The notes below the pieces were generated by a model that saw nothing but the letters and a program-made list of their open reading frames with translations, did not search any database and had not been told where the DNA came from. Positions 25,364-39,993 of a stretch of DNA of 64,000 nucleotides are shown here, piece by piece; the stretch's first letter is position 1; each line of letters opens with the position of its first letter. The position numbers were made by a program, and so were the translations under genes. The stretch comes from Colwellia hornerae. Lineage in GTDB: Bacteria; Pseudomonadota; Gammaproteobacteria; Enterobacterales; Alteromonadaceae. The stretch spans positions 32,620-96,619 of the forward strand of contig NZ_VOLR01000011.1 in NCBI RefSeq assembly GCF_007954355.1, in the 5' to 3' direction.

Positions 25364-28363
25364 TTAGCTTTTAATGAACTGTTGTTGATATTGTTTTGGG
25401 GTGCAATTAAATGACTCTTTAAAACATCGACCAAAGTACGTTTGTGATGAAAAACCAACATCTAGGGCGATTCTGCCAATTTTAGAACCGTTTTGCAGCA
25501 GTATTTGTGCTTTCGCTAGGCGGAACTCTTTAATGAAATTATTAGGTGTTGTTCCCAAGGTTACTTTCATTTTTCGTTGCAGTTGACGCTCACTCATTGC
25601 CATATTACTGGCTAGCTCTTGAATACCTAAATCAGTTTCCAAGTACATTTTGGCGACAATAGTTTCTAACTTTTCTATAAACTTTTCATCAACGGATAAT
25701 ATTGCACTTTCGCTTGGGGTTAACTGCGACACTTTCTTTACGCTACTTTCTTTTTGTTGTTCTTTTTGATGATCCCTAAATTTATGTAAATAGTTTTGCT
25801 GCAACTGCTTACGATTTTCAATTAAATTTTCAATACGGATCAGTAATTCTTGTTGATTGAATGGCTTACTTAAATACTCATCCGCTTGCAAATTCAGGCC
25901 ATGCAGGCGGCTGTCTAGGTCTGAGCGCGCGGTCAGTAAAATAACAGGAATATGTGAGGTGAGTTCATTTCCTTTTAATTGTTTGAGCACTTCAAAACCG
26001 TCAATACCGGTCAGCATAATATCGCAGACGATAAGGTCAGGAATATATTCTTCAGCTAGAATTAGCCCCTGTTCACCACTAGTCGCCAATAAACAATGAT
26101 GTTGTTGTTCAACTACACGTTTAATATGGTTTTGCATATCAAGGTTATCTTCAATAACCAAAACGACATTTTGTAGGTGATTTTTAGCTTTAGTTTTATT
26201 ATTATTTTGTTCTAGCAAGAGTGAAGAAACTTCGCTTTCTGAGACACTCATCGGTACTTGGGCTTCAATCGCAACCGATTCTTTTGCAGGAATAGATAAA
26301 GAAAATTTACTGCCTTTATTATACTCACTGACTAAATTGATACGCCAGTTATGCGCTTTTACCAATTCATTAACTAGTGATAAACCAATACCAACACCAA
26401 AGACAGCATGATTTTTTTCATCATCGGCTCTTTGAAATCGTTCGAAAATCTTAACTTGTGATGCTTGATTAATACCAATGCCAGTATCGGTAATATCTAG
26501 AATAATATTATCTTGCTCGGCATAAGCGCAAACCTTGATACTGCCACCTGCAGGTGTATATTTAATCGCGTTAGCCAGTAAGTTGAAAATTATTTTTTCA
26601 AAACCTTGAGCGTCACACTCTAGCCAAAGATCATCAGAAATATCAGCGTCAAAGCTTAAATCATTTTGCTTAGCTAAGCGTGAAAATGAATCAATTGGCA
26701 TAGCCATTAGTTGGCTTAACCGATAAGTAGACAGCGAAAGCTTAGGGTTATCGGTCAGGCGCGAAAGCTCTAAAAGCTGTTCAACCATTCGCACTAACCT
26801 TAAACCATTGCGCTTAGCGGTGGTGAGCTCTAATCCTTCTTCTTTACTTTGAGCTTTTAGTAAGTACTGATCTAAAATGCCATTAATAATCGTTAACGGC
26901 GTTCTAAATTCATGAGAAATATTAGCGATAAATTTATCTTTTAAATCTAAAGTTTGTTTTTCAGCTAATTTTCGTGCGGTCAAATTAATAAAGGTAATAA
27001 CAATAAGCGGCTTTTCTTCGCGGTCTGCCCACTGTAATTCCGCCTGTACTGGAAATTCGGTGCCATCTGTTCTGCGCGCCATACACTCTACTGAAATACC
27101 AATATCTTTGCGTTGTAGTGCATAAACATTACTTTTAAAACCAAAAAAGTAATGCATGGTATCTTCAGATGAAAATAAGGTACTAACATTTTTGTCGGTT
27201 AACTCATGTTCTAAGCTCTGGAACATTTGCACGGCTGCAGGATTTGACGATAATATTTCACCGTCAATTGAAGTGGTTAAAATGGCATTACTTGATGCGC
27301 GAACAATGGCCTTATCTTCACTATTGAGGATAGAACTGATTAATTTATGATTCTTTTGTGTTAACGCTTTATTTTCTTTTTGCTGAGTAAAAACTTGTTG
27401 CTTAAAGTCCAAGGTGTGCTTTCTTTTATTGTAAGCAATTAGCACAACCAAAATAAAAGCAATAACACCCCAAATACCAATAACAAAAGACTGCCAGAAA
27501 GAATTGGTTATGTAGAACGTACCAAGTTCTAAACCAGCAACATGAATACTAAAAATAATACTCACCAGTAATAAAATGTAAAGTTCGGGATAGGTGTCTT
27601 TGGCGATAGGTTTAGCTGGGTTTTGTGTATTTAAAGAGGCACTAGCTGCAAAGATAAGCGCGCAATAAGGAATTAGCGCCACTAAACTTTTTATATAATC
27701 ATCGCTGTATAGTGCTTGACCTTGAATGAGAAAATAATAATTAACGTTAGCCATTAATAAGGCAAGTGAGCCAATAAATAGTGGCCAATAAATAGCGCGC
27801 CAAAACTTTTCTCGACAAAAAATAACACAGCTCATTAGTCTGATAAAAATAAGACCAGAAATGGTGATGTGAAATAATAATGACGGTAATAATCTGTGGT
27901 CTAATGCTTTTGAAAATTCTTCTGGCAATAAAACGAAATAACAAAAACAGGTTACGGTAAAAAATAGTGCCGGCATCCGACCAGCAATATATTTATTGAG
28001 AGGGGTTTCGCTGAGGTGTGGGTTGGTTTCTATGGCTAATAAGATAAAGAAGTAACTAAATAATGAGAAAAAATCTTGCAGTACCGGCGTGGTATTAATG
28101 TAGTCACCGGCAAAAATAATACCCGAAATAAGATCAACAATTATAGCGAGAGAGAAAAACTGCCAGAATAACTTTAATGAACGTGACTTGGTCTGTAGAT
28201 AGCTAAAAATAACAAAGAATACTGCAATAGCCTGCAACAAAATAGCGGGCAGCGATAACAAAAAAGAAGATGTAATATTCAAAGCGCTAGCTATCGTGGT
28301 ATAGGGTAATAGGGATAATATTATGGAGATAAATAAAAGGGTTAATTTATTAAAATATAGCAA
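25364..28363 (-). CDS. Hybrid sensor kinase: 7TM (7TMR-DISM-like) + PAS + HisKA/HATPase + receiver + AraC-type HTH
   Basis: About 8 TM helices at the N-terminus. H-box FIANISHEFRTPLT. N, G1 and G2 ATPase blocks (DTGIGI, GVGIGLSL). Receiver VLVIEDNLDM..D. The C-terminus GFSSQTYFGRCFKESFNCTPKQY is AraC-like. Confidence 0.9.
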   Translation of the reverse strand: MLYFNKLTLLFISIILSLLPYTTIASALNITSSFLLSLPAILLQAIAVFFVIFSYLQTKSRSLKLFWQFFSLAIIVDLISGIIFAGDYINTTPVLQDFFSLFSYFFILLAIETNPHLSETPLNKYIAGRMPALFFTVTCFCYFVLLPEEFSKALDHRLLPSLLFHITISGLIFIRLMSCVIFCREKFWRAIYWPLFIGSLALLMANVNYYFLIQGQALYSDDYIKSLVALIPYCALIFAASASLNTQNPAKPIAKDTYPELYILLLVSIIFSIHVAGLELGTFYITNSFWQSFVIGIWGVIAFILVVLIAYNKRKHTLDFKQQVFTQQKENKALTQKNHKLISSILNSEDKAIVRASSNAILTTSIDGEILSSNPAAVQMFQSLEHELTDKNVSTLFSSEDTMHYFFGFKSNVYALQRKDIGISVECMARRTDGTEFPVQAELQWADREEKPLIVITFINLTARKLAEKQTLDLKDKFIANISHEFRTPLTIINGILDQYLLKAQSKEEGLELTTAKRNGLRLVRMVEQLLELSRLTDNPKLSLSTYRLSQLMAMPIDSFSRLAKQNDLSFDADISDDLWLECDAQGFEKIIFNLLANAIKYTPAGGSIKVCAYAEQDNIILDITDTGIGINQASQVKIFERFQRADDEKNHAVFGVGIGLSLVNELVKAHNWRINLVSEYNKGSKFSLSIPAKESVAIEAQVPMSVSESEVSSLLLEQNNNKTKAKNHLQNVVLVIEDNLDMQNHIKRVVEQQHHCLLATSGEQGLILAEEYIPDLIVCDIMLTGIDGFEVLKQLKGNELTSHIPVILLTARSDLDSRLHGLNLQADEYLSKPFNQQELLIRIENLIENRKQLQQNYLHKFRDHQKEQQKESSVKKVSQLTPSESAILSVDEKFIEKLETIVAKMYLETDLGIQELASNMAMSERQLQRKMKVTLGTTPNNFIKEFRLAKAQILLQNGSKIGRIALDVGFSSQTYFGRCFKESFNCTPKQYQQQFIKS

Positions 28364-28483: not shown

Positions 28484-29014
28484 TCACTGGCTATCTATAA
28501 GGCTAAGTAAAGAAGCTAACTTTTCAATTTTTATATTCGACAATTGGCGATAATCAAAATAGGGACAGACCACTAAATTTTGAGCCTTATCAATAGCAAA
28601 CTCGTCATCTAACCAGATAAAATTAGCCGTTAGCTGGCCTGTTGCTAGCAAATGCTTGGCGTAGGTTTTTCCACAAATAATATGCAGAGTTTGCTTAGCG
28701 GTTGATAACAGAGGAGGAGAAAACAATAAAGCCGTTTGAGAATCTTGTTGCAGTAAAAAGCGCTCTCGATATTTTTGCCAAGTTGGTGCAAGGGTTGAAT
28801 AGGCGAATTGTGCTTTATCGAGTGCGTAAAGCAACTTTGCATAAACATTGAAAACTTTTCGCCAACCATTGCCGCAAGCTTGATTAACCATCTCTATTTC
28901 GCCCAAGGTTAGCGGCGATAGAGAAGATAATTGCTGATATTCAAGCATACTTGGTTTATTACCAATATAAACGGCAATGGTAAATTTTGAGCAACCTACA
29001 CCAATATTTTTCAC
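28484..29014 (-). CDS. Hypothetical protein (176 aa), third gene of a tight three-gene operon
   Basis: No recognisable motif. 22-bp gaps to its neighbours. Confidence 0.45.
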   Translation of the reverse strand: MKNIGVGCSKFTIAVYIGNKPSMLEYQQLSSLSPLTLGEIEMVNQACGNGWRKVFNVYAKLLYALDKAQFAYSTLAPTWQKYRERFLLQQDSQTALLFSPPLLSTAKQTLHIICGKTYAKHLLATGQLTANFIWLDDEFAIDKAQNLVVCPYFDYRQLSNIKIEKLASLLSLIDSQ

Positions 29015-29035: not shown

Positions 29036-29458
29036 CTATTCATTAGGTAAGGCATTATCTAAGGTTTTTAAAGAACGTAAAAATAAACCTAAGCCACCGA
29101 TGGCTAAAACAAGTATTACAATTAAATCAAAAGAACTCATGGTCTTAAAAGTAAACCTTATTGAAGATATTACCCCAAAGATTAATCCTGATATTGAGCC
29201 AATAGCTAACACCCAGCCTAAAATATTTTTACTGTTATAAAAAATAAGGCCGACACCAAACATGAAAGGGATCATTATCATGCCACTGGTTACATTATAG
29301 TTGCCGCCCATGGCGGAAAAACCATACAGGCGTATGCCCATGCCAAAACTAGAAGTCACTGTGATTGAATTTAGTAGCATATAAAAACCACCACACATCA
29401 TAATGATGCCAATAAAAAAGTGACTTAAGCCACCTGAAGTTCCACCTGCTCCTTTCAT
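29036..29458 (-). CDS. Hypothetical integral membrane protein (140 aa, about 4 TM, Gly-rich)
   Basis: Hydrophobic, Gly/Met-rich helices. Operonic spacing. Confidence 0.45.
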   Translation of the reverse strand: MKGAGGTSGGLSHFFIGIIMMCGGFYMLLNSITVTSSFGMGIRLYGFSAMGGNYNVTSGMIMIPFMFGVGLIFYNSKNILGWVLAIGSISGLIFGVISSIRFTFKTMSSFDLIVILVLAIGGLGLFLRSLKTLDNALPNE

Positions 29459-29479: not shown

Positions 29480-30028
29480 TTATTTTTCGGCTGAGTAGGG
29501 ATCTTCAGCAAGAAGATAAGCTCTTAAATCGGCTTTGTTTGGCTGCTGATATAGCCACTCTCTAAGGGCTTTAACTTTCGCATAATTTTCTTCACCAAAT
29601 TTATCTTGGTATATTTCTGCAAAGTTTTCTTTCGTACTATTAATACGAATGTTACGTTGCCAATGTGCGGTTAGTACCGTATTTAAGGAGCCAGCTAAAT
29701 TTTCTTTTTTGAGTAATTCCCATTCACCTTTGTCTAACCAAACACCACCGACATTTGCGCTGTAGTCGATACGATGATCTGTTGAGGCAGATAGTCGAAA
29801 TTTACGCATGATTGTACCTGTTACCGGGCATAACATTGCTTGTTTAGTTTCAACAACTTGACATTGAAGGTCGTTATCAAAAGAAAACTGCGGATTACGT
29901 TCCTTCCAAGCGACATAATCTTCAATTAAGATCCAATGACCACTACAATTTGAGCAAGTATGTGCTCTAAACAACCCTTCGATAAAACTGGGTGTTAACT
30001 CACCCTGCTTACAACTAGTACATTTCAT
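29480..30028 (-). CDS. Tandem zf-TFIIB-like zinc-ribbon protein (second ribbon degenerate)
   Basis: CTSCKQGEL...CSNCSGHWILIEDYVAWKE, then CPVTGTIM...VGGVWLDKGEWELL, which resembles the C-x2-C...GGvWLD.gEl zinc-ribbon family. The start was chosen at MKC (ATG at 30028) with an AGGGAG RBS 6 nt upstream. The ORF track extends it to 30079. Confidence 0.55.
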   Translation of the reverse strand: MKCTSCKQGELTPSFIEGLFRAHTCSNCSGHWILIEDYVAWKERNPQFSFDNDLQCQVVETKQAMLCPVTGTIMRKFRLSASTDHRIDYSANVGGVWLDKGEWELLKKENLAGSLNTVLTAHWQRNIRINSTKENFAEIYQDKFGEENYAKVKALREWLYQQPNKADLRAYLLAEDPYSAEK

Positions 30029-30299
30029 TATTATCTCCCTATTAAATGTTATCTTTGTAAATTTTACGTAAACCATCATATAATCATTGCTTGATATAAG
30101 TCACGAGTAAAATCAATTAAATCAGAATACTGTAGGCTTTTATTTTTATGATTTAATGTAAACAATATGCTAATTTGGTTTTTTGAAATTTTATAAAAAC
30201 TGTATTGTATTGACATATTATGTCACAGGTGTATGGTAAATATAAAGAATAAACACCATAATAATAGCGGGTGTTCGCTATGCGCTTTAAGGATAAACA

Positions 30300-30938
30300 A
30301 TGGAACAGCTGCTAGAAGTCGCTTCAAAATTTCCCACCGTTCTATATTCGACACTGCTAGGTGTCGTGGTTGTTTATTGGCTTATTGGCATGTTAGGGCT
30401 GGTCGATTTAGGTTTAGCTGGAGATGTAGACCTTGATGTAGAAGTCGATAGTGATGTTGATATTTCTGTCGGTGGCTTGACCGGTTTTATGCTGACCTTT
30501 GGAATAACTGGTGTGCCGTTTACCTTAGTTTTTAGCATTATTATCCTTATTTGCTGGTTAATCAGTTTTTACCTGCAATTCTATATTTTAGCTTGGTTAC
30601 CCGATGGTTGGTTATATTATCTGCTTGGCGCGGTTAGTAGCTTTATCGTATTTTTAATTTCTCTACCGTTAACCGCTATTGTTATTCGCCCCTTAAAAGG
30701 GATGTTTAAAAGTGTCGAAACCTCTAAAAGTAGCGAGTTGGTAGGAAAAAGTGCCACGATTGCTACAGGAACGGTTAGTGAAATTTTTGGTCAAGCTCGC
30801 ATATATAACAACGGCGCAGAAATCTTGCTTGATGTGCGCTGTGACCCAGAACACTGCTTAAAAAAGGGTGATAATGTGCTACTGATAGAATATTTAAAAG
30901 AAAAGCATGCTTACATTGTTGCGCCGTATGCTGACTGA
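30300..30938 (+). CDS. YqiJ/NfeD-like membrane protein with C-terminal OB-fold
   Basis: Multi-TM N-part with an acidic DVDLDVEVDSDVD loop. The C-terminal VGKSATIATGTVSE...GAEILLDVRCDPE...GDNVLLIEY is an NfeD-like OB fold. Immediately upstream of a flotillin, as in yqiJK. Confidence 0.7.
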   Translation: MEQLLEVASKFPTVLYSTLLGVVVVYWLIGMLGLVDLGLAGDVDLDVEVDSDVDISVGGLTGFMLTFGITGVPFTLVFSIIILICWLISFYLQFYILAWLPDGWLYYLLGAVSSFIVFLISLPLTAIVIRPLKGMFKSVETSKSSELVGKSATIATGTVSEIFGQARIYNNGAEILLDVRCDPEHCLKKGDNVLLIEYLKEKHAYIVAPYAD

Positions 30939-31009: not shown

Positions 31010-32992
31010 ATGGTAATGGAACCACTTTATCTCGCGATTGGCATTGGCGTACTTTTAGTCTTTTCACTGTTAATCATGATGGCTAAGTTTTATCACAAAG
31101 TAGAGCAGGGCCAAGCATTAATCATCAACAAATTAGGCGCTGAACCAGAAATAAGTACCAATGGCGGCATGGTTATTCCGGTTATCCATAAAAAAGAAAT
31201 TATGGATATTTCTACCAAGCGCATGATGCTAGAACGAAAAGGGCGATCTGGGCTTATTTGTCAGGATAACATTCGTGCTGACATTACTATTACCTTTTAT
31301 ATTCGGGTTAATGAAACCAAAGAAGACATTCTACGTGTGGCAAAACAAGTTGGCTGTGAGCGCTCTTCTTTTCCTGAAACCTTGCAAGAACTTTTTGAAG
31401 CTAAATTCTCTGAAGCCCTTAAAACCGTAGGCAAACAATTAAATTTCACTGATCTTTTTACCCAGCGTGATATTTTTCGTGACAAAATTAAAGCGGTAAT
31501 TGGCCAAGATTTATCAGGTTATGTACTCGAAGATGTCGCCATTGATTTTCTTGAACAAACGTCGATAAACGATTTAGATCCTAATAACATTATGGATGCT
31601 GAAGGTATTAGGCGCATCACCGAGTTAACCGCTCAACAAAGTGTTGAAACCAATGACTTAAAACGCCAAGAAGAAATACGCATTAAACGACAAGATATTG
31701 ATGCTAAAGAAAAAGGCTTAGAACTTGATCGCCAATTAGCCGATGCCCAAGCTAAACAGACGCGAGAAATTTCTACCGTAGAAGCTCGAGAAGAAGCCGA
31801 AACGGCTAAAATAGTGCAAGAAGAATTCTGTAAGTCTGAACAGGCAAGAATAGCGACTGAACAGACCGTCGCTGTAGCCGAAGAAAATAAACAACGTGAA
31901 GCTGATATCGCACAACAAAATCGTTTTAGAGCTGTGGCTATCGAAGAAGAAAAAGTGAAACGTGCCCGTCAAGTTGAAGAAATAGATCGTGAAAAAGAAG
32001 TTGAAACACTACGAATCGACAAAGAAAAAGCCCTAGAAATAGAACGTAAAAATATTGCTGAAGTGCAGCGTGAACGCATCATGGTTGAAAAAGGCGTCGC
32101 TGAAGAAGAAGAGCTTATCAAAGATTTACGTGTGGTTTCAGAAGCTAACCGCCAAAAAGATGAATTGGTTATTAAAGCTAAAGGTGAAGCTGAGCAAGCA
32201 TTGGTTAAAGATATTGAATCAGCTAAAGCGCAAGAACAAGCGGCTGAGCATATCGCAAGAAAAATGCAAACCATTGCCGACGCTGAATTAAAAGCCGCGA
32301 GTAAACAGGCAGAGTCGAAGAAAATATTGGCTGAGGGTAACCAAGCAGAAGCGGCATCACAAGGGCTTGCTGAAGCTCAAATTACCTTAGCGCAAGCTGA
32401 TGCACACGAAAGACAAGGTGAGGCTGAAGCTAAAACACTCGAACTTAAGTTGACCGCTGAGGCTAAAGGTATACAAGAAAAAGCCTTAGCAGAAGCGACT
32501 GGTTTACGTGAAAAACAAGAGGTACTTAACGCAATGTCTGAACAAGCCAGAGAGTTTGAAACCTTTGGTTTACGTTTAAATCAAGAGCGTGAATTAACCC
32601 TAGCGAAACTAGAAAATAGTGTTGCGTTAGCTGAGAAGCAAGCGGGTGTATTAGCAACGGCATTAAGTGAAGCCAATATTAATATTATGGGCGGTGATGG
32701 CGAATTCTTGCGTCAGTTTATGAGCTCTATCACGGTTGGTAAGTCTATCGACGGCTTAGTCAATGAAAGTGAAACAGTAAAAACCTTGTTTAAAGATCAC
32801 TTAAATGGCGACCGCAATATTATGGACGATTTGGGTGGAGTGCTAGCAGGTGCTGCTCAAACGAGTGAAACCATGAAAAATTTCAACATGTCTAAGTTAT
32901 TGTCAACATTAAATAATGCCGATGACACCCAAAAAGGCGCATTGGCTAGTTTGTTAAACTTAGCGAACAAAAACTCGTCAGACGAAAAATAG
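31010..32992 (+). CDS. Flotillin-family SPFH (band-7) protein, YqiK-like
   Basis: N-terminal TM, then an SPFH domain, then a long E/A/K/Q-rich coiled coil (EA-repeat region) and a flotillin-type C-terminus. Confidence 0.9.
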   Translation: MVMEPLYLAIGIGVLLVFSLLIMMAKFYHKVEQGQALIINKLGAEPEISTNGGMVIPVIHKKEIMDISTKRMMLERKGRSGLICQDNIRADITITFYIRVNETKEDILRVAKQVGCERSSFPETLQELFEAKFSEALKTVGKQLNFTDLFTQRDIFRDKIKAVIGQDLSGYVLEDVAIDFLEQTSINDLDPNNIMDAEGIRRITELTAQQSVETNDLKRQEEIRIKRQDIDAKEKGLELDRQLADAQAKQTREISTVEAREEAETAKIVQEEFCKSEQARIATEQTVAVAEENKQREADIAQQNRFRAVAIEEEKVKRARQVEEIDREKEVETLRIDKEKALEIERKNIAEVQRERIMVEKGVAEEEELIKDLRVVSEANRQKDELVIKAKGEAEQALVKDIESAKAQEQAAEHIARKMQTIADAELKAASKQAESKKILAEGNQAEAASQGLAEAQITLAQADAHERQGEAEAKTLELKLTAEAKGIQEKALAEATGLREKQEVLNAMSEQAREFETFGLRLNQERELTLAKLENSVALAEKQAGVLATALSEANINIMGGDGEFLRQFMSSITVGKSIDGLVNESETVKTLFKDHLNGDRNIMDDLGGVLAGAAQTSETMKNFNMSKLLSTLNNADDTQKGALASLLNLANKNSSDEK

Positions 32993-33065
32993 TCATCAAG
33001 TATCAATCAGGCCATGCACAGTGATCCGTTCAAGGGTATCTGTGCATTAGCTCATGGAGTCTCAT

Positions 33066-36000
33066 ATGTCAGATAAGGATAGCGTCACTAATCAGGCTGT
33101 TGCAGAAGGAGGTTCATATGAACTTATTCAGCGCAGGTTGTCAGCCTTAGGCAGTGATCTTAATAGCCAAATTAAGCAGCTAAACGACGAGCGTATTGCC
33201 ACGTTTGGCTCCACCGATATGAAAGTTGATGCTCGTGTGCGGGTTAGAACTGAGCATAACTGTGTTGCTAGAGATATTGCCGCCATCGGAGATACCTTAC
33301 TTTTTGGCTATAACGTCTTTCTCGGTTTAAAGCGCAATATTACCGTCTCAGACGTTTTCAGTTTACACCAAATTAAAGGTGATAAAGATGATATTGAGAT
33401 TATTGATCTTCCGGTAAAGGATAGTTTTCTTGACGATGCTGAATTTGTCCGTGATTTTGATGAGTTATACACCTATTACAAAAAAACATTTCTAGCTCAT
33501 GTTTATCGACAAGGCAGTAAAGTATTTGCCATCTTTCGTATTGGTGAACGTCTTGACGATATTAGAGTATTTCGTTGGGGTATCGACGCTGATCAGCAAG
33601 TTAGCTATATCGATAATCGTGGTGAAAGAGATATAAAGCAGCCAGAAAATTTTGACTTTGAATGGCATAAAGTATCTCGAGAGCAACAAGAGCAAGGTAA
33701 ACACCCACATTATAATTTATATGACATCTTGTTTGTTGAAGCTATTGGTGGCTCAATTACCTTAAAAGTTGAGAATAATACCACCGCAGGTCAAGGCATA
33801 TATTCCGAGCCAGTCGAAGATGAACATCAGTCTATAGATGACGCCGAAATTCATTACGCCAGAGTTGGCGAGCTTATTTTATTGAAAATAAAGCCGTATC
33901 GTGAAACTGAGACCCGCCATTTAATTTTTAATGCTAAAACTCAGCAAGTGATCAGGCAAGATGCCATTGCCCATGCCTGTATTCAATTACCTGAAGACCA
34001 CGGTATTATTTTCCCCGGTGGTTACTATTTACAAAATGGCGAACACAAAAGTTTTGAAGATAATGCCGAAGATTTACAGTTACACCGCGTGATGAAATCA
34101 CCAAACGGTGAAGACTTTCTCTATATATTTTATGAACCAAACGAAGGGCAGTACGCTTTGTTCGGTTATAATTTGATCACGAGAACATTACAAAATCCCA
34201 TTTATGGTCATGGTCAAAGTTTATACAACAATGGTAGAGCGGTGGTTTTTAATGCCGAGTCTGAGCCATCACGTGTTCATGCTATGCAAATATGGCAAAC
34301 GCCTTTTTGTAGTGAAGAATTTGCCAGTAATCAACCAGTTGATAATAGCTTCTTTGGTAAAATAGGTAACCCTGAACTGGTTCGTGGTATTTCTGACTTA
34401 TTCAGTGTCGCTAAATTGATCTCGGTGCAAACACCAAGCGCGCAGCATTTTAATGATTTAGTGAAAGAGTCTAAGCAAATTTTTGACAAATATCATTGGC
34501 TTAATGATAAAGAGCTGAGTTTGCTGCATGATCTTATCAAGCAAATCGCGATCACCTCTGAATTGGTTATAGATGAATTTGAAAAAGTCACCAGCATTAA
34601 AGAAAACTCTGATCGGGCCTTAATTCAAGCAAAAGAAAAGCTAGCCAAGCTAGTAACACAAGTTCAAATTTCGGGTTTCGAGCATGCCTCACAATTCGTT
34701 GACTGCTTATCGGTTTTAGCCCAATTTAAAGGTGAATTGATCTCCCATAAAGATTTACGTTATATCGATGTTGACGCAATTAATGCCATGGAAACTCAGT
34801 TAGATACGTTAACGAAAGCACTTAGCCAAGCAACCGCTGATTTTCTCCAACAAGACGATGCTTTAACGCCTTATCAAAAGACCATAGTTGCATTAGAAAA
34901 AGCGATAGAAAAAAGTGAATCGGTTAGCTCATTAAAGCCGATTCGTACGGAAATTGAAGAACTTGTGCAAGGATTAGAATTGCTTAATCGCACTATGTTG
35001 TCACTAAAAATTGAAGATAGCCGACAAAGAACACGTATTCTAGAAGATATTTCCACTGTCTTTAGTCAAATAAACCGCGTTAAAGCTAATGCTGATTTGG
35101 CGGCTAAAAGTGTCGGTAGTGAAGAGGCGCGAGCAGAATTTGGTGCTCGATTTAAACTGTTAAGCCAAAGTGTCACCAGTGCTTTAAATGCCAGTGATTC
35201 ACCGCCAGCATGTGATGAGCAACTTTCTCAAATTTTAATTCAGTTAGAAGATTTAGAAAGCCAGTTTAGTGATTATGATGAATTTTATAATGAAATTATC
35301 ACTAAAAGGGATGAAATATACGATAACTTCGAACAACATAAGCAGCAGCTGATGGATGCACAGCAGCGTCGTTGTTTGAATTTGATGACGGCAGCCGAGC
35401 GTATTATCGAAGGTGTGATCAGACGGAGTCAATCGTTTAGTCTGCAAGACAAATTAAACAGCTATTTTGCTGGCGATCCTATGGTTGCCAAGCTTAGGCA
35501 ACTAATTGAACAGCTTAGAGAGCTTGATGACAATGTTAGAGCCGATGACATTGATGCGCAATTAAAAAATGCTAAAGAGCAAGGCATAAGAGCACTGAGA
35601 GATAAAACCGATATTTACTCTGCTGACGGTAGTTTAGTTAAAATAGGCGACCACCAATTTTCGGTGAATCGTCAAAAATTAGAACTGACCTTATTACCTC
35701 GTGATGGTGCCATGGTCTTGCATATCAGTGGTAGTGAATACTTTGAAACGCTACCCACTGAATTATTTGTTGGTACTGAATACCTTTGGCAACAAGCGCT
35801 GGTCTCAGAATCTGACAAGGTCTACCGAGGTGAGTATTTAGCGGCGACATTATTATTTGAGGCTGAATTTGCTGGCCAAGCGCAACTTGAACATTTAAAA
35901 GCGGCGGTAAAAAACAATGAATTAGGCAAGGTGGTCAGAAAAGCTGCTGAGCCACGTTATCAAGAAGGTTATGATAAGGGCGTACATGATGCCGATGCGG

Positions 36001-38285
36001 CATTAATTCTAACGCAATTACTTGCTTTAAGAGAATCTATTGGCTTGTTAGCTTATCCCGTCGCCGAAAGAAGACTAGCAGTACTTTTTTTCACCACAGA
36101 ATTAGCAGATAACGGCCGAAAAGATTTATTACAACGCAGTCATAATCTCCATATCATGGAAGAAACCTTTGGCGATAATCAATTACGTCATCAGCTTATT
36201 AAAGAACTGGCTACATTATTAGATAGTTATCTTGAAAGTCAGCCTTGGCTGAAATGTGACACGTTACTGTCAGCAACCTACCTATTGCAAGAGTTAGCTT
36301 TAGCCGAGCAGAAATTTGTTATTAAAGAAAGTAGCGTTGAGTTAGCCAACCAACTGAAGAGTCAGCTAAAGCATAAGAGCTTAGAAAAACAACTCAGTGG
36401 CGCATTATCGGGTTGTTTGACACTAGAGCAAAAATATCAACTTTACTGGGCGTGGTTGCAGGCTTTTTCTTCGCATCAGAGCATGAACATCCATCAAGAT
36501 ATTATTGCTGAAGCCGCAATCTTTATGCTGATGCAAGAGCAATGTGAATTCTATACTTCATTGGCTGACACCGAAGGTGTTGTTGATGGTTTATTGGGGC
36601 AGCACGGACAAATATCGGAGAGAAAAATTGCGATAAATTATCAAGAATTTATCACTCGACTACGCCAATTTAAAAATGAGCATGAACCGGCATTCAAAGG
36701 CTTTCATATTCAAAAGCAAAAGGTATTAGCGGCACAACGCAAACGCTTACGCTTAGAAGAGTTTAAACCAAGAGCGCTGTCTTCGTTTGTGCGTAATAAA
36801 TTAATTAATGATGTTTACTTCCCGATTATCGGTATTAATTTAGCTAAACAAATTGGTGCAGCTGGTAATAATAAACGTTCTGATTTAATGGGATTATTAC
36901 TGCTTATTTCTCCACCAGGTTATGGTAAAACAACGCTTATTGAATATGTTGCCAGCAAGCTAGGTATGACCTTTGTTAAAATAAACTGTCCTTCAATAGG
37001 ACACGATCAGTTGTCGCTAGATCCCGCTCAGGCAAATAACTCAACAGCAAAAAATGAAGTTGAAAAGATTAACTTAGCCTTTGAAATGGGTAACAATGTC
37101 ATGTTGTACCTTGATGATATTCAGCATACCAATCCTGAGTTCTTACAAAAGTTTATTTCCTTATGTGATGGCTCAAGAAAAGTGGATGGTGTCTGGAATG
37201 GCGAAAGTAAAACCTATGATATGCGCGGCAAAAAATTTGCAGTTGTCATGGCTGGTAACCCTTATACCGAATCAGGAGAAGCATTCAGTATTCCAGATAT
37301 GTTGGCTAACCGAGCCGATATTTATAATTTAGGTGATACCTTAAGTGGTCGAGAAGAAGAGTTCTCGTTAAGCTTTATTGAAAATAGCTTAACCAGTAAC
37401 CGCTACATCGCGCCACTAGCGACCCGAAATATGGACGATCTCTATAATCTGGTTAAAATTGCCGATGGTCAACAAGTTGCCACAACTGAGCTAAAACATA
37501 ATTATTCGCAAGCCGAAATCAATGAAATAGTTGCGGTTATTCAACGTATTCGTAAAATTCAAGCGACGGTATTAAAGGCTAATCAACAGTACATCGCCTC
37601 TGCCGCACAAGACGATAAATATCGCACTGAACCTTCGTTCAAGTTACAAGGAAGCTATCGCAATATGAATAAGATGGCGGAAAAAGTAGTGCCGGTTATG
37701 ACCGAAGAGGAAGTTGAACAGCTTATTGCCGATCATTATCGCGGCGAAGCGCAAACACTGACCATAGGCGCTGAAGAAAACTTACTTAAATTAGCGGAAC
37801 TGCGCAACAATCAAACCAGTGAAGAAAAAGTGCGTTGGCAACAAATTAAGGCGGATTTTGTTCGTCATCAAAACTTGGGCGACAGTGATAACCCCATTGC
37901 CGCGGTTGCGAGCCAAATATCGTTATTGCAAAAAGGCCTCAATCAAATAGGAGAGGCCTTGTTACAGCCTAAATCTGCAGCGTTAGCTACCTTAAATGAA
38001 ACGCTTGCAAGTCTTAAACTACAAGTGAATATTGAAAAGCCAGATGATTCGGCGTTAGCAGAAACTTTAGCGCTATTCAGCGAAAATATGGCGTCTTTTT
38101 TAACTCCACTGGTTAACACGTTACAAAGTAATAAGAACGTCGATTTGGCGATGATTGATACCTTAAAAACATTGAACCTGACGACTGAGAAATCAGTAAA
38201 AAGTTCTGAAAGCCATATTCAAAAAATTAGTCGAGAATTAGCATCAGGAAAACAACGTAATATTGATGTGCCGTCTGCTGACTAA
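33066..38285 (+). CDS. Giant (about 1740 aa) uncharacterised protein. The N-terminal ~1200 aa have no recognisable domain and include long helical/coiled-coil stretches. The C-terminus is a MoxR/dynein-like (AAA_5-type) AAA+ ATPase module
   Basis: Walker A LLLISPPGYGKTTLIEYVA. Walker B VMLYLDDIQHTNPEFLQKF (DD, not DE). Sensor-1/Arg region VVMAGNPYTESGEAFSIPDMLANRADIYNL. Start preferred at the ATG at 33066 (GGAG 6 nt upstream, MSDKDS..). The ORF-track ATG at 33054 lacks an RBS. 61 bp after the flotillin gene. Confidence 0.75.
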   Translation: MSDKDSVTNQAVAEGGSYELIQRRLSALGSDLNSQIKQLNDERIATFGSTDMKVDARVRVRTEHNCVARDIAAIGDTLLFGYNVFLGLKRNITVSDVFSLHQIKGDKDDIEIIDLPVKDSFLDDAEFVRDFDELYTYYKKTFLAHVYRQGSKVFAIFRIGERLDDIRVFRWGIDADQQVSYIDNRGERDIKQPENFDFEWHKVSREQQEQGKHPHYNLYDILFVEAIGGSITLKVENNTTAGQGIYSEPVEDEHQSIDDAEIHYARVGELILLKIKPYRETETRHLIFNAKTQQVIRQDAIAHACIQLPEDHGIIFPGGYYLQNGEHKSFEDNAEDLQLHRVMKSPNGEDFLYIFYEPNEGQYALFGYNLITRTLQNPIYGHGQSLYNNGRAVVFNAESEPSRVHAMQIWQTPFCSEEFASNQPVDNSFFGKIGNPELVRGISDLFSVAKLISVQTPSAQHFNDLVKESKQIFDKYHWLNDKELSLLHDLIKQIAITSELVIDEFEKVTSIKENSDRALIQAKEKLAKLVTQVQISGFEHASQFVDCLSVLAQFKGELISHKDLRYIDVDAINAMETQLDTLTKALSQATADFLQQDDALTPYQKTIVALEKAIEKSESVSSLKPIRTEIEELVQGLELLNRTMLSLKIEDSRQRTRILEDISTVFSQINRVKANADLAAKSVGSEEARAEFGARFKLLSQSVTSALNASDSPPACDEQLSQILIQLEDLESQFSDYDEFYNEIITKRDEIYDNFEQHKQQLMDAQQRRCLNLMTAAERIIEGVIRRSQSFSLQDKLNSYFAGDPMVAKLRQLIEQLRELDDNVRADDIDAQLKNAKEQGIRALRDKTDIYSADGSLVKIGDHQFSVNRQKLELTLLPRDGAMVLHISGSEYFETLPTELFVGTEYLWQQALVSESDKVYRGEYLAATLLFEAEFAGQAQLEHLKAAVKNNELGKVVRKAAEPRYQEGYDKGVHDADAALILTQLLALRESIGLLAYPVAERRLAVLFFTTELADNGRKDLLQRSHNLHIMEETFGDNQLRHQLIKELATLLDSYLESQPWLKCDTLLSATYLLQELALAEQKFVIKESSVELANQLKSQLKHKSLEKQLSGALSGCLTLEQKYQLYWAWLQAFSSHQSMNIHQDIIAEAAIFMLMQEQCEFYTSLADTEGVVDGLLGQHGQISERKIAINYQEFITRLRQFKNEHEPAFKGFHIQKQKVLAAQRKRLRLEEFKPRALSSFVRNKLINDVYFPIIGINLAKQIGAAGNNKRSDLMGLLLLISPPGYGKTTLIEYVASKLGMTFVKINCPSIGHDQLSLDPAQANNSTAKNEVEKINLAFEMGNNVMLYLDDIQHTNPEFLQKFISLCDGSRKVDGVWNGESKTYDMRGKKFAVVMAGNPYTESGEAFSIPDMLANRADIYNLGDTLSGREEEFSLSFIENSLTSNRYIAPLATRNMDDLYNLVKIADGQQVATTELKHNYSQAEINEIVAVIQRIRKIQATVLKANQQYIASAAQDDKYRTEPSFKLQGSYRNMNKMAEKVVPVMTEEEVEQLIADHYRGEAQTLTIGAEENLLKLAELRNNQTSEEKVRWQQIKADFVRHQNLGDSDNPIAAVASQISLLQKGLNQIGEALLQPKSAALATLNETLASLKLQVNIEKPDDSALAETLALFSENMASFLTPLVNTLQSNKNVDLAMIDTLKTLNLTTEKSVKSSESHIQKISRELASGKQRNIDVPSAD

Positions 38286-39311: not shown

Positions 39312-39349
39312 CTGTATATACTGACAGTAACCACTGTGTAAATTTACAG
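39312..39349 (+). promoter_or_regulatory. Two adjacent LexA (SOS) boxes in the lexA promoter
   Basis: CTGTATATACTGACAG (39312-39327) and CTGTGTAAATTTACAG (39334-39349). Both fit CTGT-N8-ACAG, immediately upstream of the lexA ATG, as for E. coli lexA. Confidence 0.85.
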
Positions 39350-39357
39350 GCTACCCT

Positions 39358-39993
39358 ATGCTAAATGAAATCAGCGAATTACGCCCACTAACGAACCGAC
39401 AACAACAAGTTTTTGATCTGATCAAAGACAAAATAAGCGATACGGGTATGCCACCAACGCGTGCTGAAATAGCAAAGTTTTTTGGCTTTAAATCAGCAAA
39501 TGCCGCAGAGGAACATTTAAAAGCTTTGGCTAAAAAAGGCTATATAGAAATGTTACCGGGCACTTCTCGTGGCATTCGTTTAACTGAAAAGTTAATGGAA
39601 GAAGCCGGTTTACCTCTAATCGGTAGAGTTGCTGCCGGTGAGCCTATTTTAGCTGCAGAGCATGTTGAAGACCATTATAAAGTTGATGGTAATTTGTTTC
39701 ACCCAGCTGCTGATTACTTACTGAGGGTTAATGGCGAAAGCATGAAAAACATCGGTATACTTGATGGTGACTTGTTAGCCGTTCATCAAACTACAGATGT
39801 ACAAAATGGCCAGGTAATTGTGGCTCGTGTCGAAGAAAATGTTACGGTTAAACGTTATAAACGTGAAGGTAATATCGTTTATTTACATGCTGAAAATGAT
39901 GATTTCTCTCCTATTAAAGTCGATTTATCCGCTCAAGAATTTAATATTGAAGGGCTAGCTGTTGGCGTTATTCGCTCGGCAGACTGGATGTAA
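39358..39993 (+). CDS. lexA: LexA repressor
   Basis: Collinear with E. coli LexA: [21 protein letters not shown]...[14 protein letters not shown], the AG cleavage site in VAAGEP, and the catalytic S/K (GESM...VKRYK). Confidence 0.95.

Follow-up and report, generated by a model that had tools for sequence, protein, structure and literature searches.

Colwellia hornerae carries a gene for a giant AAA+ protein of a large family that is spread widely over the bacterial phyla and uncharacterised by experiment. The protein is a typical member, and its gene closes a three-gene cassette whose other two members are predicted to encode a small NfeD-type membrane protein and an SPFH/flotillin-like protein. 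The cassette lies within a stretch of 64,000 nucleotides (NCBI RefSeq assembly GCF_007954355.1, contig NZ_VOLR01000011.1, positions 32,620 to 96,619 of the forward strand), referred to here as the window, and coordinates given without a locus name count from its first letter. On balance we favour a reading in which family, cassette and mechanism belong together and the giant protein is an ATPase that would assemble, remodel or release a membrane complex. The gene context is the most informative clue to its function, and the flotillin/NfeD operon was absent from an earlier note that had been made on this DNA from the sequence alone. The cassette comprises the following features.

30210..30237, forward strand: candidate sigma-70-type promoter TTGACA-16-TATGGT (consensus scan, 10/12 matches)
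30300..30938, forward strand: gene 1, a 212-residue multi-pass membrane protein with a C-terminal OB-like domain, its position conserved in distant phyla
31010..32992, forward strand: gene 2, a 660-residue SPFH/flotillin-like protein (homology to flotillin/SPFH proteins)
33054..38285, forward strand: gene 3, the giant DUF3686-DUF7902-AAA+ protein of 1743 residues (translation, Pfam, homologues)

The linkage of the three genes is kept over large evolutionary distances. The SPFH gene lies directly 5′ of the giant gene in each of the 34 loci whose upstream DNA reaches far enough, as judged by tblastn and annotations, and the small membrane protein precedes the SPFH gene in 33 of them, the exception being L027, which gave no small-protein match. 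A 35th locus (L013) sits at a contig edge with only the 3′ end of the SPFH gene and stands outside this count. The loci are drawn from Colwelliaceae, Psychrobium, Acidobacteriota/Thermoanaerobaculia, Planctomycetota, Pseudomonas (plasmid pQBR103), Proteus, Streptomyces, Nonomuraea, Deinococcus, Hymenobacter and two metagenomic lineages, seven phyla in all. Because the order of the cassette is kept while the flanking genes are not conserved between loci, gene order provides strong evidence that small membrane protein, SPFH protein and giant ATPase form a three-gene functional unit. The promoter candidate is no more than a match to a pattern, and sites of this kind are as frequent in the region as expected by chance.

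The product of gene 2 combines an N-terminal transmembrane helix with an SPFH domain, a long coiled coil rich in Glu and Ala, and a further domain at the C-terminus. Pfam gives no direct match to the window protein, whose assignment to the SPFH/flotillin family goes by transitive homology. It shares 100% identity with a 'flotillin family protein' of Colwellia hornerae and 44% (E 1e-153) with the 'SPFH domain-containing protein' of pQBR103, which in turn passes the Pfam Band_7 cut-off (42.5 bits vs 23.6); its identity is about 50% with a Band_7-annotated orthologue and 45% with a Planctomycetota orthologue, and the source annotations name the gene flotillin or YqiK. One locus (L029, 5322-5816) has an extra 164-residue Band_7 gene between the small membrane protein and a gene for a 664-residue flotillin-like protein; with 66% identity to the SPFH domain of this neighbour, it looks like a partial tandem duplication. 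Gene 1 probably belongs to the YqiJ/NfeD family: its profile matches are sub-threshold but consistent and spread over three orthologues (YqiJ_OB with E 0.047 for the window protein; YqiJ_N with E 0.068 and NfeD with E 0.0078 for orthologues), and the Hymenobacter orthologue is annotated 'DUF1449 family protein' by the Prokaryotic Genome Annotation Pipeline (PGAP).

Relatives of the giant protein are abundant. A collection of 5.8 billion proteins returned more than 4000 in one search and more than 6000 in another, and exhaustive HMMER with residues 1200-1743 as query, over a search space of 1.8 billion cluster representatives, gave 374 clusters at 50% identity with E <1e-30. The C. hornerae protein is 84-97% identical to other Colwellia proteins (96.7% to that of Colwellia sp. 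MB3u-41, locus L001), identity between phyla is 41-51%, and the DUF3686-DUF7902-AAA architecture recurs in homologues from other phyla. PGAP and Pfam use the names 'DNA repair ATPase' or 'ATPase involved in DNA repair', the former being the PGAP label of the homologues; we return to these names below.

The open reading frame was verified at 33054..38285. Two in-frame ATGs stand four codons apart at 33054 and 33066, and only the latter has a correctly spaced Shine-Dalgarno-like GGAG. Because this GGAG lies 6 nt upstream of ATG 33066 and some orthologues have the same 1739 residues that this start would give, 33066 is probably the true start and the mechanically called one 12 nt too early. Residue numbers below refer to the 1743-residue form, which is laid out as follows.

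33156..34496, forward strand: DUF3686 region, residues 35-481 (Pfam PF12458, E 2e-192)
34314..36533, forward strand: middle region, residues ~421-1160, with long helical bundles that include DUF7902 (residues 602-682), a small beta domain (residues ~861-899) and a second helical domain (residues ~925-1160)
36888..37373, forward strand: AAA+ alpha/beta core, MoxR-like, residues ~1279-1440
37911..38282, forward strand: variable helical C-terminal tail of low confidence, residues ~1620-1743 (conservation profile; predicted local distance difference test, pLDDT, <60)

The earlier note had recognised no domain in residues 1-1200, where Pfam places both DUF3686 (640 bits vs a cut-off of 25) and DUF7902 (PF25472, 80 bits vs 26, E 1e-22). 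Both are domains of unknown function, and so the match leaves the architecture unexplained; a resemblance to SMC-like or dynamin-like proteins, the kind of family match the note had envisaged, appears neither in sequence nor in fold. Its description of this region as helix-rich holds for the helical bundles and fails for residues ~55-415, which are all-beta in an AlphaFold2 model of residues 1-1200 (mean pLDDT 84). Twenty-eight beta-strands are modelled in residues 57-415, with pLDDT mostly 80-90, followed by very long helices in residues 420-855, the small beta domain in residues 861-899 and the second helical domain in residues 925-1160. The Protein Data Bank (PDB) entries matched by Foldseek are propeller proteins (IFT-A, Elp1, CyRPA, WDR91, YncE, EED and DDB1). 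On this model DUF3686, at residues ~55-415, is a beta-propeller, probably with seven blades to judge from the strand count, and the remainder of the N-terminal region is predicted to be a bundle-type helical scaffold. The order of propeller and helices recalls coat-like, membrane-associated proteins such as the IFT-A subunits (the top Foldseek matches, E 2e-7 to 1e-5) and the clathrin heavy chain, in which a propeller is followed by helical repeats, and the nucleoporins grouped with them; with TM-scores of about 0.1 the match is one of architecture only and does not argue for homology, and the helical part is made of long bundles where the coat-like proteins have a solenoid.

Pfam AAA and AAA_5 exceed their cut-offs, and the giant protein has a single AAA module. 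The placing of a single ATPase module at the far C-terminus thus stands as to its number, while some 300 residues continue beyond the AAA core. The product carries no transmembrane segment and no protease domain. It is best described as a soluble protein of ~195 kDa with, in this order, a beta-propeller, spectrin-like helical bundles and a single MoxR-clade AAA+ module. Conservation peaks in the AAA core and lid (residues 1231-1590), in the propeller and in residues 691-900; the block conserved across representatives stops near residue 1640, and the last ~120 residues are variable. The ATPase motifs are the following.

36909..36935, forward strand: Walker A SPPGYGKTT, residues 1286-1294, with K1292 (translation; family-invariant)
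37104..37127, forward strand: Walker B LYLDDIQH, residues 1351-1358, with D1354 and D1355 (translation; family alignment)
37176..37229, forward strand: pre-sensor-1 beta-hairpin RKVDGVWNGESKTYDMRG, with invariant G1379, W1381, Y1388 and D1389 (model and alignment)
37251..37262, forward strand: sensor-1 AGNP, residues 1400-1403, with N1402 (after beta-4 in the model; invariant)
37305..37319, forward strand: ANRAD, residues 1418-1422, with R1420 as putative arginine finger (invariant; just before beta-5 in the model)
37647..37673, forward strand: QGSYRNMNK, with invariant R1536 as candidate sensor-2 (helix start at residue ~1535 in the model)

Translation bears out the Walker A, LYLDDIQ, GNP and ANRAD motifs just as the earlier note had quoted them, and the Asp-Asp pair that it had singled out in Walker B proves to be a property of the family. 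In the family alignment of 390 sequences, position 1354 is Asp in 381 of 383 and position 1355 in 380 of 383, the exceptions being N, H and T, and Glu does not occur. The family consensus is hhhDDIQH, the I, Q and H of which are near-invariant, as are N1402 and R1420; K1292, N1311 and R1536 are listed with these last two as invariant in the alignment. N1311 ends beta-2, which we take to be the position of the 'glutamate-switch' Asn of other AAA+ proteins, and R1536, where a helix of the lid domain begins, is a candidate sensor-2. At the level of DNA both Asp positions use GAT and GAC in all combinations and never GAA or GAG (34 loci, seven phyla). Since Glu is just one transversion away and yet absent from these loci, Asp is actively maintained; at the position of the catalytic Glu it is a selected family trait, under purifying selection across phyla.

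The register of the motifs was taken from structure because PDB sequence searches align the P-loop alone. Searches with the whole protein or the family profile met only the P-loops of Rix7, NVL, RuvB and p97, the segment from Walker B to sensor-1 gave no relevant PDB match, and a regular-expression search for a MoxR comparator gene in the window and the fetched loci found none. In an AlphaFold2 model of residues 1151-1743, built from a 64-sequence alignment (mean pLDDT 76.7; core strands and helices 82-92), the AAA+ alpha/beta core and helical lid are present, and a pre-sensor-1 hairpin is formed by strands at residues 1376-1381 and 1384-1389, between helix 3 and strand 4. Beta-3 comprises residues 1349-1354; because it ends at D1354, D1355 fills the slot right after the Walker B Asp, presumably that of the catalytic Glu. 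As comparator served residues 1-193 of E. coli RavA, a sequence that agrees exactly with PDB 6q7l and 3nbx, and hhalign pairs the family profile with it weakly (E 0.0027, probability 11%): VMLYLDDIQHTNPEFLQ is set against EIVFLDEIWKAGPAILN, the family's Walker B falls on LDEIW of RavA, D1354 on D114 and D1355 on E115. On the model the MoxR/AAA_5 frame holds, and with it the motif register of the earlier note. RavA has Asp-Glu where the giant family has Asp-Asp, an unusual pair for a MoxR-type fold.

A natural counterpart is found in DnaA, whose PDB sequences read VLLIDDIQFLA (Bacillus subtilis, 8bv3/8btg) and ILLIDDVQFL (2z4r), so that LLIDDIQF in DnaA and LYLDDIQH in the giant protein carry a near-identical Asp-Asp. 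DnaA is a slow AAA+ nucleotide switch whose hydrolysis is stimulated by a partner. The earlier comparison with engineered 'Walker B trap' mutants does not fit a pair that is invariant, under purifying selection and natural in DnaA. By this analogy the Asp in place of Glu most plausibly makes hydrolysis slow or partner-dependent and would not mark a dead enzyme, while the invariance of the remaining catalytic residues suggests a working ATPase, possibly slow or partner-gated. Membership of the DnaA/initiator clade was considered and rejected, neither a DnaA-type profile nor the initiator fold being the best match. STAND NTPases likewise use hhhhDD, and they too were rejected: nSTAND3 reaches 12.6 bits against a cut-off of 27.2 and matches the P-loop only, and the giant protein has both an arginine finger and a sensor-1 Asn.

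Within the AAA+ superfamily the module scores 28.8 bits against a cut-off of 22 for AAA_5 and 12.4 against 27, below threshold, for AAA_3, the model for MoxR proper. A helix-2 insert is the defining feature of the MoxR clade, whose members carry an arginine finger just before beta-5, in the place of R1420, and are normally paired with a vWA partner (PMC7159879). At the site of the MoxR helix-2 insert the family has a conserved, ordered insertion of 18 residues (1312-1329), between beta-2 and helix 2. The same stretch between beta-2 and helix 2, residues ~1304-1339 (36963-37070), contains a series of invariant or near-invariant residues, G1316, H1317, S1321, D1323, P1324 and T1331, and may serve to touch a partner or substrate. 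Compared with the MoxR clade at large, the giant module is fused to ~1250 N-terminal residues and to a conserved post-lid block of ~200 residues, and unlike CbbQ, NorQ and RavA (AAA_5/AAA_3) it comes without a vWA partner. MoxR-type AAA+ modules and SPFH/NfeD pairs are known kinds of protein; the unusual features are the invariant Asp-type Walker B, the arm of propeller and bundles, and the linkage to a flotillin.

From domain content, motif conservation, fold class and gene linkage we infer an oligomeric state, a flotillin interaction, a mode of hydrolysis and a physiological role as follows. The SPFH protein and its NfeD-type partner would, like other SPFH-NfeD pairs, assemble at the inner membrane into a cage or ring that faces the cytoplasm. 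The giant ATPase would oligomerise via its AAA+ ring, with propeller and helical arms docking on the flotillin scaffold or its clients, and slow or partner-gated ATP binding and hydrolysis could then assemble, remodel or release the membrane complex, probably in the service of a membrane-stress function. The invariant catalytic set, together with W1381 and Y1388 of the hairpin, points to a functional nucleotide-driven machine, and the gene neighbours suggest that it probably works at the membrane and not on DNA. HflK/C is an example of an SPFH scaffold that has an AAA+ protease, FtsH, as its partner, and the likeness lies in an AAA+ enzyme tied to an SPFH scaffold, a tie that for the giant ATPase is read from gene order alone. 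In contrast to FtsH, the giant ATPase has neither transmembrane segment nor protease domain and belongs to the MoxR rather than the classical FtsH clade, and in contrast to the HflK/C-FtsH pairing its gene shares an operon with the SPFH gene. The other close parallels are QmcA-YbbJ, YqiK-YqiJ and FloA-NfeD, where an SPFH scaffold and a small membrane protein of NfeD/YqiJ type are likewise co-encoded. SPFH-NfeD pairs build large cytoplasm-facing cages, QmcA-YbbJ from 26 heterodimers, and the FloA-NfeD pair of S. aureus stabilises unfolded proteins without ATP (PMC13086221).

The surroundings of the cassette vary from lineage to lineage. In the window they include the following features.

25364-28363, reverse strand: 999-residue hybrid PAS-histidine kinase-receiver-AraC protein, Colwelliaceae-only, outside the cassette
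28484-29014, reverse strand: DUF6942 protein, Colwelliaceae-only, outside the cassette
29036-29458, reverse strand: 140-residue open reading frame without a family, Colwelliaceae-only, outside the cassette
29480-30079, reverse strand: Zn-ribbon (TFIIB-type) protein, Colwelliaceae-only, outside the cassette
39312-39327 and 39334-39349: two SOS boxes that match CTGT-N8-ACAG perfectly, just 5′ of lexA (39358-39993)

The upstream Zn-ribbon, 140-residue and DUF6942 genes and the downstream alpha/beta hydrolase and lexA genes were rejected as members of the cassette, being Colwelliaceae-only or absent elsewhere. Between 29900 and 39500 the window holds 16 terminator-like hairpins against 8.2 ± 2.3 in shuffled sequence, about twice as many, and none in the 182-bp gap after the stop of the giant gene (38285). 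Elsewhere PspA/IM30 genes adjoin the cassette (L031 11453-14026, metagenomic; L035 1272-1976, Hymenobacter plasmid), in L031 with a gene for a 588-residue classical AAA protein after the PspA/IM30 gene; a test of conservation was negative for both of these L031 genes, and they were rejected as conserved partners. In pQBR103 (L032 9-2384) the cassette is preceded by a set of DUF350, DUF1190 and glutathionylspermidine-synthase-family genes, which we take to resemble E. coli yjfLMC. Together the PspA/IM30 and yjfLMC-like neighbours hint at a role in membrane stress, an association that recurs without being general.

How the giant protein uses nucleotide is the point at which the favoured reading meets the proposal of the earlier note, a switch or scaffold, taken here in its pure form as a platform that would hold ATP for long, with negligible hydrolysis and no mechanical remodelling. 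The family-wide Asp in place of the catalytic Glu, the nearest natural hhhDDIQ precedent in the slow, partner-stimulated switch DnaA, and a large propeller and helical-bundle region that resembles an interaction platform are all in keeping with it. A mere holder of ATP would nevertheless have no need of an invariant sensor-1 Asn, arginine finger, candidate sensor-2 Arg and beta-2 Asn, the invariant aromatics of the pre-sensor-1 hairpin are what a working AAA+ ring would be expected to have, and Asp is still capable of acting as a general base. We therefore consider the pure switch unlikely, and of the earlier note the observation is upheld while its interpretation is supported in part. Much further from the evidence is a genuine role in DNA repair, perhaps as a factor of the SMC/Rad50 or RuvB type, which is what the PGAP and Pfam names announce. 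The weak RuvB_N matches at Walker A that could speak for it cover the P-loop only and, at 19 bits against cut-offs of 282-299, fall more than 260 bits short; neither Pfam nor the fold search found a DNA-binding, nuclease, SMC or Rad50 domain. The lexA gene 1 kb downstream in the window is no better guide: as a neighbour it recurs only in the closest relative, L001, and the one other LexA-family gene seen, ~4.6 kb 5′ of the Hymenobacter ATPase gene, is unrelated. The SOS boxes stand before lexA, as expected for its autoregulation, and none lies in the 220-bp region 5′ of the cassette. With membrane proteins as conserved partners, a role in repair is extremely improbable, and the name 'DNA repair ATPase', carried by thousands of entries, finds no support in the evidence gathered.

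A third view would place the cassette among anti-phage or other conflict systems, with a MoxR-like ATPase gating a membrane-acting effector. MoxR-like ATPases are indeed core to several such systems, some of them with beta-propellers, although these are built around a couple of MoxR and vWA proteins (PMC7159879), and Pfam scans of the cassette proteins show neither a vWA partner nor a recognisable effector. Some megaplasmids carry the cassette, pQBR103 among them, as does a Streptomyces linear plasmid, and one locus adjoins IS66 genes; plasmid matches are mostly to chromids and megaplasmids, and across Colwelliaceae the locus is syntenic amid housekeeping genes. PADLOC returned nothing significant for the three cassette proteins, the sole match in PADLOC-DB being to mad8 (E 0.01), over the P-loop, with none for the other four proteins scanned, PHROGs gave no meaningful matches, and no homologue was found in phage records. 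The identity kept between phyla is moreover unlike that of fast-evolving defence genes, and we regard a conflict system as highly unlikely.

The membrane-complex reading has its own weak points, and the following observations count against it. PspA genes adjoin the cassette in just two of ~12 independent lineages, the YqiJ/NfeD label of gene 1 is based on sub-threshold matches, and a contact between flotillin and ATPase is read from gene order alone. As for the clade, the match to RavA is faint, the 18-residue insertion is modelled as an ordered loop with no clear hairpin where the clade-defining helix-2 insert should be, and Pfam scans show no vWA domain in the giant protein or any cassette gene. 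A literature search, finally, found no publication on the DUF3686-DUF7902-AAA+ family within the library covered.

The function of bacterial flotillins is unresolved, and published work describes ATP-independent scaffolds. That one flotillin subfamily is strictly paired with a giant ATPase gene across seven phyla or more raises the hypothesis of an energy-consuming partner, and tractable carriers of the cassette are at hand in Proteus mirabilis, P. fluorescens pQBR103, Streptomyces, Deinococcus and Vibrio. A MoxR-type module that holds its Asp under strict selection is in addition a natural experiment on how Walker B tunes hydrolysis. A bolder and more tentative proposal, which we put forward as a possibility only, is that the cassette encodes an ancient and so far unrecognised machine for membrane remodelling or quality control, with an ATP-driven partner of >1 MDa dedicated to a flotillin subfamily and its NfeD protein. 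The coat-like arm of propeller and bundles, coupled to a partner-gated, Asp-type Walker B, would assemble, disassemble or load the flotillin cage. If this were true, bacterial flotillins would gain an energy-dependent cycle analogous to that of ESCRT-III/Vps4 or HflKC/FtsH.

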